Shown here in pieces: positions 20,764 to 25,791 of a stretch of DNA of 64,000 bases (its first letter is position 1; each line of letters starts with the position of its first letter). The notes below the pieces were generated by a model that was not told where the DNA came from, did no database searches, and was given only the letters and a program-made list of their open reading frames with translations. Position numbers and translations under genes: made by a program. Source of the DNA: a virus (Duplodnaviria; Caudoviricetes); IMG/VR virus record IMGVR_UViG_3300013383_000028, positions 1 through 64,000 of that record; one strand, 5' to 3'.

Positions 20764-20789
20764 TAAACAAAATAAACAGAGGTGCTTAC

Positions 20790-20843
20790 GCACTGTTCCG
20801 GTGCTTTCTCCTACGGGAGAGGTATCGGAACAGCGCTTTTTTT
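20790..20843 (+). terminator. Leader terminator between the late promoter and terS
   Basis: About 21-bp stem with a C(UACG)G tetraloop followed by T7. Confidence 0.8.
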
Positions 20844-20859
20844 CGTTTTTGGAGGGAAA

Positions 20860-21807
20860 ATGGGCGAAAACGTCAGCGAACTGGAACAACAAGAATATTA
20901 TGCGCAGCTTGCAAAAAAGACGTCAGAAAGCCTTGCGTATTTCTACTGCTGCGTCAAATATGACGTTCCGTTTGCGCGTGACTGCGTGCCGCGAGATAAC
21001 GGCCGCGACAAGTGGCTCTCGTACCTCGACAACCTCCATATCAAAAAGCTGGACGTCAGCAAGAGCGGAGAACGATACGGTTTTCTTGACGGCCTGACCG
21101 ATATCACAAAAATCTTCGGCGAGGGGCTGAAAGACGGTGAGTTCACAAAGGCTGTATACGCCGAAAAGAACGCACAGACGGCAAAGGCCGGAACGGTGAG
21201 ACAGCGGAAGGACTGGGGAACCGGAAACGAAGATCATCCGTATACGAATGAAGACTATGCGGAGTTCGACAGGATTTACACAATCCTCGCGTCAGACCTT
21301 GGAGGAGAAGACGCACTGAGTGCAAAGCAGCAGCTCATTCTCCGCAACGTGTCCAAATGGACGAAACAAATGAACGATGCTTCTGATGCTGGAAAATTCG
21401 ATGCAGCAAGAAAGCTGTCGGCCATCATTCAGGAAAACTTGGCGAGTGATAACCTCAGAAAGCGCGATGCCAAACCGGTAGAGGAAATCCGGATTGACGG
21501 AATTACTGAACGGCTCGAAAAGGCTGGCTTGATGAAGAACGGTAAACCGGTAGACCCCGATACTGCATTTGAGCTGCTTTTCCACCGAAGACCTAAATAC
21601 TCTTACACGAAAGACGCGGCAGAGCAGATGCTTCTCGCAATTATCAACACGTCGCGTATGAACGATTCGCTTCCAGAGTTCTCGACGCTGCCAGATAGCG
21701 CGAGAATCAAAGATGATCTCCACGAGTTTGCGGAAGAACCAAATGAAATGGAGAAAATCGCATATGAAGGGTTCGGCTATGTGAAAATGCCGCCCGCGAA
21801 GGGGTGA
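20860..21807 (+). CDS. Probable terminase small subunit
   Basis: First late gene, directly before TerL; GGAGGG RBS; positional call. Confidence 0.55.
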   Translation: MGENVSELEQQEYYAQLAKKTSESLAYFYCCVKYDVPFARDCVPRDNGRDKWLSYLDNLHIKKLDVSKSGERYGFLDGLTDITKIFGEGLKDGEFTKAVYAEKNAQTAKAGTVRQRKDWGTGNEDHPYTNEDYAEFDRIYTILASDLGGEDALSAKQQLILRNVSKWTKQMNDASDAGKFDAARKLSAIIQENLASDNLRKRDAKPVEEIRIDGITERLEKAGLMKNGKPVDPDTAFELLFHRRPKYSYTKDAAEQMLLAIINTSRMNDSLPEFSTLPDSARIKDDLHEFAEEPNEMEKIAYEGFGYVKMPPAKG

Positions 21808-21816
21808 TGCTAGGTT

Positions 21817-23688
21817 ATGGCGAGACGTTACGGTAAGGCGTGGGCGCCGGGCCTACAATCATAAGGCGTTGGATGGATAAGTAAACGCGAAGTTGAACAA
21901 CGCGATTACAGCAACTTTGAAAATGATTTTTGGTGTCTTCTGATTTGGGTCGGAAGATTCTTCCCAGATATCCTTGCGGATGTGCTCCGCGCCGATGACG
22001 CGGACTACAAGACACTTGAAATTGTGCAGCGCGTCATGCTGCGTGCAAATGCGCGGTATCAGGACGTGGCAATCACGGGAACCCGTGGACTGAGCAAGAC
22101 CTATTCGGAAATGCTTGGCGAGGAAATCAATGGTGTCGTTTGGCCGGGTACGAGAGTCCTGTATACTGGTCCGGCACTAAAGCAACTGTCGGATATTGGA
22201 AGCAAAACACACGCAGACTTGGCAAAAAGCTATCCGTGCATTACAAAACACTGGCGCATTGCGGCAGAAAGTAAAGACGATTTCAAAATCACGACGGATT
22301 ATGGGTCATCCTTCTACATAGGGGCAAAACGTGGCGACAACCTTCACGCTGTTATCGCAGAAGAGTTTGCGCAGGAAGAACAACCGGCCTTTGACTTCAA
22401 TGAATATACGACGGTCGCGCTTCCTGCCGTTCGATTGGCGCATAACGTAAACGGTGAGAAGGACGAAAACTTCGTAGCGTATAAAAACCACTCGATCACC
22501 AGCGCAGGGAGAAAGCAGAATCACGCATTCTTGGTTCGCTGTGAAGTGAGAAAAGGGATGCGGAACGGAGACAGCAGCTTCCAAATGGATGTCCCGTATC
22601 AATGCGTAATCCTTCAACAGATGCGTCCCTACTCATGGGCACAGAAGCTGAAATCGAAGCTTACCCCTGAACGCTGGATGCGTGAGATGGAAAGCCGGTA
22701 CACCGGCGCAGATGAGTATCCGATCATTTCAGATGAGAGCCTTTCCGAGAGTTGCTGCTTGCAGAGCATGGAACGGCAGCACTGCTGCAAGTATCCCGGC
22801 TGCAGGACAGACCCGAAGGACGTCATATACATTGTCTGCTACGACGTTTCCTATGAGGATGCCAAGAAGAATGCAAAATGCGCTGTTGGCGTTTGGAAAC
22901 TCACTAAACAGGAAGACTTCCTCAAGCGAGACAGATACCTGAAACAGCTCGTGTGGCTGGACGATTGGCCACCACCTGATAATGCCATGAAGCAAGCACG
23001 CCGGTTGAAAGACGTATGGTATCGATTCTGCTTTGAAGGCGGAAATACTACGTATATCGCAATCGACGGCTGGCAATACGGCAAGGCCGTCATCGAAGAC
23101 CTGATGAAAGACCTCGGCGATGGATTGCCGCCACTGTGCATCTTAGACCACACAGAGTACACAGCGCTGGAACTTGACGGTGCACTTCCAATCATTTATC
23201 CGATCAAGGCCGGCGGCAGTGGTGTCACCGACCCGGATGCAGAGATGATCAGGTACGCGCAGACGCAGTTCGATAACCACAATGTGCAGCTTCTCACAAT
23301 GAACACCCGTGAGGGCGTAGAAGCGTACAAGCGGCTTCATAAGATCAAGGACGATGATCTGGATTATCAGATTGCACGGCCATATCAAAAGACCAGAGAA
23401 CTGTCTGGACAGATACAAAACCTGAAGGCCGTGCCGTCAGGCGCTGGTATCAGCGAGAAACGAATTTCCCGCGCAATACAGAGAGACAGCTGGTCGGCAA
23501 TCAAGTACGGACTGCGGCTCTCACAGAAGCTGGAACGTGAGCTTGCGTTGAGCGAGGTCAAGAAAAAAAGCGACTGGGACGCAGCTCTTTCAAAATATAA
23601 AGGCATGGACACCGTTCGCAACGTCGGTGGAAGACAGAATGCGGGCGGACGAATGGTGACGCAGAGACGCGGAGGAAGGATATTCTGA
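21817..23688 (+). CDS. terL: Terminase large subunit, interrupted by an in-frame TAA at 21862-21864
   Basis: Walker A GTRGLSKT, Walker B VIAEE, ITSAG, nuclease YDVS and IAIDG, RDSWSA; the frame extends from 21982 upstream to ATG 21817 with one TAA. Confidence 0.88.
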
Positions 23689-24068: not shown

Positions 24069-25791
24069 GCTTCAATATGAGTCTTTTCCCGAGATCTTTA
24101 GCCGATTTCGCAGACTCGCGGCAGAAAATCAGGGCGTGCCGATGGCATCCATCACGTCTGCATTTTCTGGGATAAACTCTGGCCGGTACGGAATGGCGAA
24201 TCCGTACATTCAGAACCGGCGTGTCAAGCAGATATCCTCCTTGCCAGTCAATTTCACCAAGGATAAAGTCGGTGAAATGTTGACAAAGCCTTATGAGAGT
24301 GAACAGCCGCTCCGGCAGGTGGCGCATATCCTTGAGTATACGGCATACCCGCTTTTCCATATTCGCAAAGTCTATCAGGAAATGTTGACGTATCACAGCT
24401 ATGTGATACCGAAACTGGTTGACTCGGCCGATACCAAAAAGGACGAGTTCATGCGGGAATGGAAGCTGCTCGAGAAACTTCGCGAAGCGTTCAATCCAAA
24501 GGAAACCGCGCACCAGATCGTCGGGCAGGTCGGCGTAGAAGGAAAGGTTTTCTACTATCCGAGATACGGTGTCGACAAGAGCCACAACAAGGTCAACTAC
24601 GCATTCATGCAGCAACTGCCGAGTGACTGGACGAAGATTACTGGCTACAACAGCGTATCAAAGTACACGGTTGCATTCAACATGATGTACTTCCTGCAGC
24701 CCGGATGCGTACCGGAACAGTTTGGAGATCTGTTTACTCCGTATCTGTATGATTTCAGCAGCGTTGTGCAGAAGCCGAAAGGCGTCGGATCGACAATGGT
24801 CTTCGCGCAGAAGACGCGCGTTGATATGCAGAAATTCCAGCGCATCCAAGCACAGGGCGATATGCCGGGAAAGCCGGATGTCTATTACCAGAATGGGCGC
24901 TGGTACTACTGGGTGTACCTGCCGGCAGATGAAGTCTTCACCTTTGAAGCTGATGATGTGAGCCGCACGGCGATTTCGCCGTTTGCAGGACTGTTCCTGA
25001 ACATGATCCAGCTCGCGCAGATGGAACAGATCCAGTTGGAGTTGATTCAGAACCCGTTGGTGAGCATCTTGCACGGCGAGATTCCATACCGAGACGAGAA
25101 AACCGCTACTAGTGATGACCAATACAGACTGAGTAACGCCGGAAGATTGTTCTTTGAAGCTGTCTGGTACGACATGCTTCAAGCGGCCAACACATCTGGC
25201 ATAGGCCTTTTCATGGCACCGCTTCAGTCGATGAAACTTGAATCCTTATCCGAAGCACCTTCCGCAATGGACATCGTGAAGCAGGGCTACAGCGATACCA
25301 TGAGCCAAGCCGGTATGGGCGCAATCATCCCGCTTGGAGACGATCCGAAAGCAGGCACCGCGCAGATCTCGCTTCAGATCGAGAGCAAGTTCATGCAGAC
25401 GGTCTATCGGGGATATGAGCGGATGATGAATGCGATCATCAAAAAGCTCAATCTCAAGTATGATTGGAAGTTCGTCATATTTGGCGATATCTCGGAAGAC
25501 GAAAAGATGCTCGAACGCTGCATGAAGGGCATGGAGCACGGCATTCTACCGGATACCATCATATACAATGCCCTGCTTGACCGGTCGATTCTCGATGATA
25601 TCTGTCTGTCCGACGCGGTATACAACAGCAATATCCTCGACAAGCGTATGCCTCTGATTACCTCGTATAGCGCGTCTCAGGACAAATCCAATTTGCCGCC
25701 GCAGAGTCCCGGACGGCCGAAAGGTGACGGAAGCGCCACAACTGACGGCAGTGAGACCATGATCGATCAATACGGAGGGACAAATGACTGA
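24040..25791 (+). CDS. Portal protein (SPbeta YonE-like position)
   Basis: About 580 aa after TerL; C-terminal PGRP motif. Confidence 0.75.
   Translation: MAIETSELSKLQYESFPEIFSRFRRLAAENQGVPMASITSAFSGINSGRYGMANPYIQNRRVKQISSLPVNFTKDKVGEMLTKPYESEQPLRQVAHILEYTAYPLFHIRKVYQEMLTYHSYVIPKLVDSADTKKDEFMREWKLLEKLREAFNPKETAHQIVGQVGVEGKVFYYPRYGVDKSHNKVNYAFMQQLPSDWTKITGYNSVSKYTVAFNMMYFLQPGCVPEQFGDLFTPYLYDFSSVVQKPKGVGSTMVFAQKTRVDMQKFQRIQAQGDMPGKPDVYYQNGRWYYWVYLPADEVFTFEADDVSRTAISPFAGLFLNMIQLAQMEQIQLELIQNPLVSILHGEIPYRDEKTATSDDQYRLSNAGRLFFEAVWYDMLQAANTSGIGLFMAPLQSMKLESLSEAPSAMDIVKQGYSDTMSQAGMGAIIPLGDDPKAGTAQISLQIESKFMQTVYRGYERMMNAIIKKLNLKYDWKFVIFGDISEDEKMLERCMKGMEHGILPDTIIYNALLDRSILDDICLSDAVYNSNILDKRMPLITSYSASQDKSNLPPQSPGRPKGDGSATTDGSETMIDQYGGTND

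Follow-up and report, generated by a model that had tools for sequence, protein, structure and literature searches.

Very few natural cases of translational bypassing have been described, namely gene 60 of phage T4 and its homologues, the byps of yeast mitochondria and, as a candidate, the large terminase of Streptomyces phage phiHau3. A further candidate is described here in the large terminase gene (terL) of a virus of the Caudoviricetes (Duplodnaviria), IMG/VR record IMGVR_UViG_3300013383_000028. The window analysed is the whole stretch of 64,000 nucleotides (nt) from position 1 of that record, and coordinates given without a locus name refer to it. After 12 codons, terL of the window is interrupted by a 12-nt coding gap ending in TAA, which is flanked by two GGC codons; the remainder of the terminase is encoded beyond it. 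Comparison of related sequences favours a short translational bypass of an endonuclease-linked insert, to which a probability of about 0.7 is assigned. No published description of this terminase gap family was found in the literature.

The phiHau3 terminase is the closest described case, T4 gene 60 with its endonuclease MobA is the closest in genetic logic, and the synthetic stop-hops are the closest in geometry. Inserts of 7–10 nt in the large terminase of phiHau3 (and in the StrepC.1 and S. catenulae prophages) are candidates for bypassing (Smith et al. 2013, as cited in PMC10732093; PMC5009743). For phiHau3, these sources describe two 10-nt inserts starting with the rare codon UUA and a Gly take-off codon in a KGWG context, as well as a g6/7 junction peptide demonstrated by mass spectrometry in an E. 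coli reporter (PMC10732093, PMC5009743). In phiHau3 as in the terL family considered here, short inserts that disrupt the frame or contain stops are found in a large terminase gene, between flanks which are adjacent in uninterrupted homologues. The putative take-off codon encodes Gly in a Trp/Gly-rich context (KGWG in phiHau3, GKxWxxG here), and a slow codon comes first in the gap. Two sites are present in one gene in phiHau3, and two alternative sites are present in the terL family.

The two cases differ in several respects. The terminase lineage considered here is SPbeta YonF-like, with hosts that are probably human-gut Firmicutes (Clostridia); both lineage and hosts are unrelated to those of phiHau3. 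The trigger would be mostly TAG, or else CTA, ATA or CCA, instead of the bldA-dependent UUA. Gaps are 2–12 nt long, some of them in frame, and are situated at codon 12 or around codon 44, whereas those of phiHau3 are located mid-gene. No predicted 5' stem-loop was found in the terL family, unlike phiHau3. Linkage to GIY-YIG genes is observed here, and none was reported for phiHau3. The prevalence is also different: 114 of 178 loci here compared with 3 of 100 for phiHau3.

In T4 gene 60, the bypass insert and MobA constitute one mobile element, in which the insert blocks self-cleavage, the nuclease is often lost and the gap is kept (Manning and Atkins, 10.1101/2022.08.31.505936). A stop or hungry codon after the take-off codon is a conserved feature of the gene-60 cassette (10.1101/2022.08.31.505936), and the efficiency of bypass is about 40–50% (10.1101/2022.08.31.505936; PMC5009743). 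The terL family has in common with this system matched Gly codons, a stop or hungry codon after the take-off codon, an AT-rich gap, and an insert lying a few tens of nt from a free-standing endonuclease gene and moving with it. The gap is 2–12 nt here and 50 nt in T4 gene 60 (PMC5009743), leaving no room for a take-off hairpin. The endonuclease is of the GIY-YIG type instead of the HNH type of MobA, the target is terL instead of a topoisomerase gene, and there is no sequence homology between the two systems. The present family would carry the idea of an 'endonuclease plus bypass' cassette beyond the HNH/topoisomerase pair of T4-like phages, to a lineage unrelated to them in which GIY-YIG is paired with terminase.

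Synthetic stop-hops and hungry-codon hops in E. coli are engineered or stress-induced and have low efficiency (PMC5009743, its refs 54, 597-601); according to the same 2016 review, no natural in-frame stop-hop was known (PMC5009743). In these hops, as would be the case in terL, peptidyl-tRNA re-pairs a few nt downstream at a stop or starved A site without elaborate signals. Their geometry resembles TAT TAG CAC or TGC (+6), GGT TA GGC (+5) and GGC...GGC (+15) of the terL family. Unlike the synthetic hops, those in terL would be required for an essential gene and maintained by selection.

The byps of Magnusiomyces capitatus mitochondria comprise 27–55 nt with hairpins, according to PMC5009743. 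Like the terL inserts, they are numerous, short and mobile, lie in coding sequences between matching take-off and landing codons, and would be corrected during translation; they differ in belonging to a mitochondrial genome with a different translation system and in having no link to a nuclease gene. The 'ribosome bypass' in tmp of Cluster O mycobacteriophages (PMC4351075) was judged to be different, with an HNH gene upstream and an unresolved start.

Structure of the Interrupted Terminase Gene

The main elements of the interrupted gene are as follows:

21801–21808, plus strand: ribosome-binding site (RBS) of terL, Shine-Dalgarno-like GGGGTGAT, 8 nt 5' of ATG 21817–21819
21817–21852, plus strand: terL segment 1, 12 codons (MARRYGKAWAPG), matching the N-terminus of uninterrupted homologues
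21850–21852, plus strand: proposed take-off codon GGC, codon 12
21853–21864, plus strand: 12-nt coding gap CTACAATCATAA (CTA CAA TCA TAA), in which TAA at 21862–21864 closes frame 0
21865–21867, plus strand: proposed landing codon GGC, followed by GTT GGA TGG
21868–23688, plus strand: terL segment 2, from GTT to the stop codon (VGWISKREV... RRGGRIF*), with Walker A (TGTRGLSKT) and the nuclease domain
21982–21984, plus strand: GTG taken as the start by finders of open reading frames (ORFs), giving a 568-amino-acid (aa) ORF in frame with segment 1

A preliminary description of the window, made from its letters alone, had pointed to ATG 21817 with an RBS, in frame with TerL past the TAA, and the sequence agrees with this to the base. 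Beyond the gap, the terL frame stays open for 607 codons, up to 23688, and residues 13–55 of TerL include EVEQR... and DYSNFENDFWCLLIWVGR. Removal of 15 nt was said to yield APGVGW; this is exactly what is found in an uninterrupted relative with 95% identity (L008), which reads MARRYGKAWAPGVGWISK, so that the window corresponds to the L008 sequence plus 15 nt. The product also fits the conserved N-terminus of the homologues: those of full length (611–627 aa) start with M-[AS]-R-R-x-G-K-[VA]-[WYF]-x-x-G-x-G-W, and the GKxWxxG context is equally conserved in gapless relatives. Only two sense codons of the window are rarer than CTA 21853–21855 (2.9 per 1000), the codon that would occupy the A site at take-off, and it is probably decoded slowly in the host.

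A motif of the GGTGAT type precedes the start codon in every gap-bearing variant. In the region corresponding to window 21800–21816, gap-bearing alleles carry a strong GGGGTGAT/GGTGAT RBS, and several of them start with TTG or GTG; in the near-isogenic gapless L008, L167 and L195, the 20 nt or so ahead of ATG contain only AAAGG. The stronger RBS of gap-bearing alleles could compensate for a low yield of bypass.

Recurrence of the Gap in Related Loci

Loci containing terL were collected from IMG/VR, human-gut metagenome assemblies, two contigs of metagenome-assembled genomes, and Logan and ENA contigs; 178 loci were classified after duplicate contigs had been dropped. The gap occurs at two sites. 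Site 1, directly after Gly12, is gapped in 63 of the 178 loci (12 nt in 35, 11 nt in 11 and 2 nt in 17). Site 2, in the R-W-Y-P-D motif around codon 44, is gapped in 51 loci, where the hops would be 6, 7 or 10 nt. No gap is present in 64 loci, and none has both. The 114 gapped loci (64%), which stem from many independent assemblies, represent 22 sequence variants, 12 at site 1 and 10 at site 2, including the following (gap in brackets between take-off and landing codons):

Site 1, GGC[CTACAATCATAA]GGY, 12 nt, the type found in the window
Site 1, GGT[TAGCTGAAATAG]GGC, and a variant of it ending in TAA
Site 1, GGC[TAGTCTATAAAA]GGC
Site 1, GGC[TAGTCATAAAAT]GGT
Site 1, GGC[TAGTTGAATAG]GGY, 11 nt
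Site 1, GGT[TAGCTGAATAG]GGC, with stops in all three frames
Site 1, GGT[TAGACGAATAG]GGC
Site 1, GGT[TA]GGC, 2 nt
Site 2, TAT[TAG]CAC, 26 loci
Site 2, TAT[TAG]TGC; TAT[TAGT]TAC; TAT[TAGT]TGC
Site 2, TGG[TAGC]AGG-TAC; TGG[ATA]TGA-TAC
Site 2, TGG[CCATTTA/C]TGY-TAY; TGG[CTATTTC]TGT-TAC

Examples of site 2 are provided by L055 (2590–2610), L052 (2590–2612), L083, L084, L212 and L244 (2914–2928). When the gap is removed together with one flanking codon, an open in-frame product spaced as in gapless relatives is obtained in all 63 site-1 and 51 site-2 loci.

The insert of the window type, CTACAATCATAA, is present in 12 loci and its variant CTAAAATCATAA in two, which makes 14 loci in all; in 10 of them the landing codon is GGT. 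Alignment of the TerL N-termini of relatives, which the preliminary description had recommended, thus places the insert in 13 loci besides the window, and it is not unique to one genome. These loci come from at least five independent assemblies (IMG 3300045988, IMG 3300029717, ERZ791905, ERZ1034925 and OOAA01), which excludes both a private mutation and the assembly artefact that had been considered. Assembler coverage of the gap-bearing contigs ranges from 144x to 765x, as expected for replicating phages. The gap is missing from L008, L167 and L195, which are otherwise 95–96% identical.

Codon Matching and Reading Frames

At site 1, the take-off and landing codons are GGY in all 63 gapped loci. 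GGC and GGT, which are both read by one tRNA, replace each other in these positions, but GGA and GGG are absent. Gapless relatives use GGA, GGG, GGC or GGT for the same Gly. At site 2, two or three of the three base pairs are possible between the landing triplet and the take-off tRNA, the pairs being TAT with TAC, TGC or CAC, and TGG with TGA, TGY or AGG. The first codon of the gap is TAG in 15 of the 22 variants; the other first codons, CTA, ATA and CCA, are the 3rd, 10th and 15th rarest.

Downstream of the gap, the coding sequence lies in frame 0, +1 or +2 in different variants, and the 11-nt gaps TAGTTGAATAG and TAGCTGAATAG carry stops in all three frames. Since the landing frame is variable and three-frame stops occur, no single frameshift or readthrough event could be the mechanism common to the family. 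No X XXY YYZ or prfB-like slippery site was found at the gaps. Programmed +1/-1 frameshifting does not fit the inconsistent change of frame, the three-frame stops and the lack of a slippery site. A change of genetic code or a suppressor tRNA was likewise rejected: the neighbouring genes are intact under table 11 with normal stop usage, and there is no suppressor among the four tRNAs of the record.

Selection on Both Sides of the Gap

In genes with a site-1 gap, the ratio of non-synonymous to synonymous differences per site (pN/pS) amounts to 0.20 over codons 2–12, 0.22 between codon 13 and Walker A, and 0.12 in the remainder of the gene; the values for the same three parts of genes with a site-2 gap are 0.22, 0.09 and 0.23. 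Synonymous divergence in gap-bearing genes is near saturation (pS 0.58–0.73). Comparison of L015 with L002 reveals three synonymous and no non-synonymous differences 5' of the gap, and 26 and one, respectively, 3' of it. The 12 leader codons of the window type differ from those of gapless L008 by seven synonymous changes and no non-synonymous ones. The 39 codons between the gap and GTG 21982 are conserved as protein, and all 178 genes stay open for at least 480 codons after Walker A with no other lesion in any of them. Purifying selection acting on both sides with the gap in place indicates that both segments have been translated as protein over the long term.

Association with GIY-YIG Endonuclease Genes

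In relatives of the window, genes of GIY-YIG homing endonucleases are situated between the gene in the terS position and terL, and end 4–9 nt 5' of the terL start. Four diverged types of 217–277 aa with 38–51% mutual identity are represented, all at the same junction (examples are L003 1610–2443, L055 1810–2463, L202 797–1456, L244 2133–2786 and the L060 spacer). Their GIY-YIG domains score 25–28 bits (cut-off 22.6); weaker matches of the NUMOD type (NUMOD1) pass their own cut-offs in two proteins only.

An endonuclease gene directly precedes terL in 39 of 176 loci, i.e., in 36 of 112 loci with a gap compared with 3 of 64 without. Fisher's test applied to these raw counts gives p 9e-6, a value that is not independent evidence. 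The 217-aa type accompanies site-2 gaps only (17/17). On the TerL tree, the state of the endonuclease changes 21 times and that of the gap 8 times.

Comparison of individual loci is more instructive. L003, which has an endonuclease gene and a gap of the window type, and L195, which has neither, are about 98–100% identical through the terS-position gene and 100% identical beyond approximately +280 nt of terL. They differ by the insertion of the endonuclease gene and by a 280-nt tract with about 13 mostly synonymous changes, which holds the 15-nt insert. Such a mosaic is the pattern that homing with co-conversion would leave. L001 and L193 share 93% identity over a 60-nt patch comprising segment 1 and the gap, compared with 48–58% in its flanks; their terL genes are otherwise 50–58% identical. 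L223 and L224 are 96–100% identical, yet carry different site-2 inserts. Judged from the L003/L195 pair and from the mosaic profiles of identity, joint inheritance of gap and endonuclease gene, with a tract of co-conversion, appears to have taken place. In the 82.9-kb record as a whole, no GIY-YIG gene was found, and the window is a gap-only descendant; the close relatives L006, L009, L010, L013 and L022 are of the same kind.

Proposed Mechanism of Gap Crossing

The simplest mechanism fitting all the variants would be short bypassing, in which peptidyl-tRNA takes off from the P site and re-pairs 5–15 nt downstream. In the window, translation of terL would start at ATG 21817, and after 12 codons peptidyl-tRNA-Gly (anticodon GCC) would be positioned on GGC 21850–21852, while the A site would hold the rare Leu codon CTA, with TAA three codons downstream. 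Some of the ribosomes would then cross the gap: the tRNA would release the mRNA, the mRNA would slide by 15 nt, and the tRNA would re-pair with GGC 21865–21867. Decoding would then be picked up at GTT, and the resulting TerL (...APG-VGW...) would have the same length as in uninterrupted relatives. The predicted tryptic junction peptide of the hop is AWAPGVGWISK. Ribosomes that do not hop would release a 15-residue peptide. A gene-60-like hop between matched Gly codons had been suggested in the preliminary description, and this suggestion agrees best with the gaps of 2 and 11 nt at the same codon, the prevalence of TAG after Gly, the GGY flanks and the signs of selection.

As regards the origin of the gaps, micro-inserts of 2–12 nt at two fixed sites in the 5' part of terL would travel with GIY-YIG genes and often outlive them. 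The insert would destroy the target site of the endonuclease, and bypass would keep the essential terL working, by analogy with T4 MobA/gene 60.

Several points weigh against this interpretation. In the window variant, the stop is not adjacent to the take-off codon and a sense codon, CTA, occupies the A site; this CTA could be decoded normally and the hop could be inefficient. The matched flanking codons could in part be a footprint of the origin of the insert (duplication of a target triplet) and not of decoding. The 2-nt variant has TTG in the landing frame five codons upstream, which provides an alternative start (gene call P0004). The nascent chain at take-off is only 12 residues long, so no long peptide signal is possible. 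Stimulatory RNA structure was not detected when five variants with a gap and one gapless control were folded (relative to shuffled sequences, z ranges from -0.96 to +1.29), and gaps of 2–12 nt are themselves too short for a hairpin. The GCCT/AGGC hairpin over the stop, postulated earlier for the window, proved to have only 4 base pairs, with z = 0.24 for the region relative to shuffles, and is not part of the minimum free energy structure. Concerning the endonuclease, phylogenetically independent pairs give a median p of 0.5 in an underpowered comparison (2.5 vs 0.1 pairs, with a consistent direction), and protection of the carrier from the endonuclease, most likely the role of the insert, is drawn from analogy only.

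An inverted repeat CGCG...CGCG at window 21892–21910 (CGCGAAGTTGAACAACGCG), about 25 nt 3' of the landing codon, is the only recurrent downstream stem predicted. It is encoded by the conserved KREVEQRD, is lost in the variant with the 2-nt gap and is no better than shuffled sequences.

It is possible, though on the doubtful side, that these are minimal bypass elements operating without RNA structure. A pause at a stop or rare codon after Gly, Tyr or Trp in the P site, together with a cognate or near-cognate triplet 5–15 nt downstream, would then suffice for the ribosomes of gut Firmicutes to hop, already at codon 12, at a rate that supplies an essential enzyme, and the gaps would be used or tolerated by the phages as cheap, quickly replaceable armour against GIY-YIG endonucleases. 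If this were true, the output of TerL would depend on the availability of release factor 1 (RF1) or of a rare tRNA, which would be a physiological gate on packaging, and the family would include the first natural in-frame stop-hops.

Apart from that, a single essential gene of abundant human-gut phages provides 22 natural variants, distributed over two sites, with proposed hops of 5–15 nt. The set spans cognate and near-cognate landing as well as stop and sense codons in the A site, and includes near-isogenic gapless controls. Variants and controls together amount to a mutational series, already provided by nature, from which the minimal requirements of hopping could be deduced.

Alternative Explanations

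The alternative that survives best, while still unlikely, is internal initiation, in which the gap would never be crossed. Initiation at ATG 21817 would yield a 15-residue leader, and TerL itself would start at GTG 21982, without some 55 of its N-terminal residues but with Walker A. This GTG is the first canonical start after TAA, as no in-frame ATG, GTG or TTG was found between them, and 31 residues would be kept before Walker A; gene callers do yield such models. According to the structural model, the N-terminal 30 residues are predicted at low confidence and might be dispensable. On the other hand, no GGAGG-like Shine-Dalgarno motif is found in the 18 nt 5' of GTG 21982 (CCAGATATCCTTGCGGAT), as had been recognised in the preliminary description, and the strong RBS belongs to the upstream ATG. 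The first available start varies among relatives (MGRFFPD, MIWVIRW, MQRMMMRA, MMRAYAR, MLRAYAR), and none of these is conserved. Purifying selection on the 12 codons before and the 39 codons after the gap, at saturating pS, would not be expected of an untranslated region or a throw-away leader. GTG 21982 is most likely an internal Val codon.

Readthrough is a slightly less probable explanation for the window. GGC CTA CAA TCA would be decoded and TAA read occasionally, adding five residues (LQSxG) in an N-terminal turn. The particular geometry of the window speaks for readthrough: the gap is in frame, there is a single frame-0 stop to pass, and the product would be longer by five residues only. 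In the structural model, the site falls within a turn that separates two short strands and might accommodate an insertion. As the mechanism of the family readthrough fails, since variants at the same codon are out of frame, contain two frame-0 stops or have stops in all frames. Across the variants, the gap is unlike coding sequence and its length shifts by 1 and 10 nt. There is no suppressor tRNA in the record. In bacteria, termination is generally most efficient at TAA. Readthrough, which had been listed early as an option, does not account for the out-of-frame variants, and it retains some place only for the in-frame variant of the window.

Still less probable is that the gap is removed from, or absent in, the template, with a gapless subpopulation supplying TerL or the mRNA being edited or micro-spliced. 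Near-isogenic gapless genomes (L008, L167, L195) do occur in the same kind of samples. These gapless relatives, however, also differ at many other positions of the 5' tract, which marks them as separate alleles that did not arise by excision, and the gap-bearing contigs assemble cleanly at the coverage given above. Dependence on a helper would not sustain purifying selection on the gapped gene. No bacterial mechanism is known to splice 2–12 nt, and no support was obtained for the micro-splicing that had initially been proposed.

The least probable explanation is that the insert inactivated terL in a decaying prophage, as an in-frame stop in an essential gene of a linear, 87% complete record might suggest; the inactivating mutation envisaged at first is refuted by long-term selection (pN/pS of 0.1–0.2 at pS of about 0.6–0.7) and recurrence (114 of 178 loci gapped at two sites, yet no other lesion in about 600 codons), and the gap-bearing contigs have high coverage.

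Identity of the Terminase and Genomic Context

The interrupted gene encodes a bona fide large terminase, as is evident from Walker A, the nuclease domain, the top structural matches and the portal gene downstream. TerL has 765 homologues and shares 23–25% identity with annotated terminase large subunits of SPbeta- and Tsamsa-like Bacillus phages. In a Foldseek search of the PDB with an AlphaFold model of an uninterrupted relative, all the top matches were large terminases (T4 gp17, HK97, Sf6, G20c); this model is mediocre (predicted local distance difference test, pLDDT, 63.8) and says little about the first 30 residues. A Pfam search with TerL matched no family, and a profile search of PDB sequences with TerL gave no match. 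No second terL was found in the 82.9-kb record, and the gene in the window is the sole one.

Other features of the locus are the following:

20782–21807, plus strand: gene in the terS position, 341 aa (from GTG 20782) or 315 aa (start at 20860), PHROG 3314 of unknown function, placed by synteny
21955–21969, plus strand: equivalent of the second gap site, AGA TTC TTC CCA GAT (RFFPD), uninterrupted in the window
24088–25791, plus strand: portal gene, PHROG 2739 portal protein (E 8.6e-33), packaging-module context

The stop codon of the terS-position gene (TGA 21805–21807) sits within the RBS of terL. The virus record, 82.9 kb in length, was called linear and 87% complete, and no concatemer or long repeat was found within the window. 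Four tRNA genes are located on the minus strand about 350–570 nt apart (L246 4845–6447, corresponding to 68845–70447 of the record, beyond the window). They are Met(CAT), Gln(TTG), Pro(TGG) and Gly(TCC), none being a suppressor and none reading GGY.

Gene callers stop at the micro-gap, and as a result most terL genes of this family are truncated or mis-started in databases. Most public gene models for this terminase family are of this kind, either truncated (521–595 aa) or mis-started, e.g., P0003, P0006–P0012, P0032, P0039 and P0062. Mis-started models are exemplified by P0032 (MHGGPLLSGRRVGSRYPDK) and by P0004 (MVTRLGVGW), which begins at a TTG in the landing frame.

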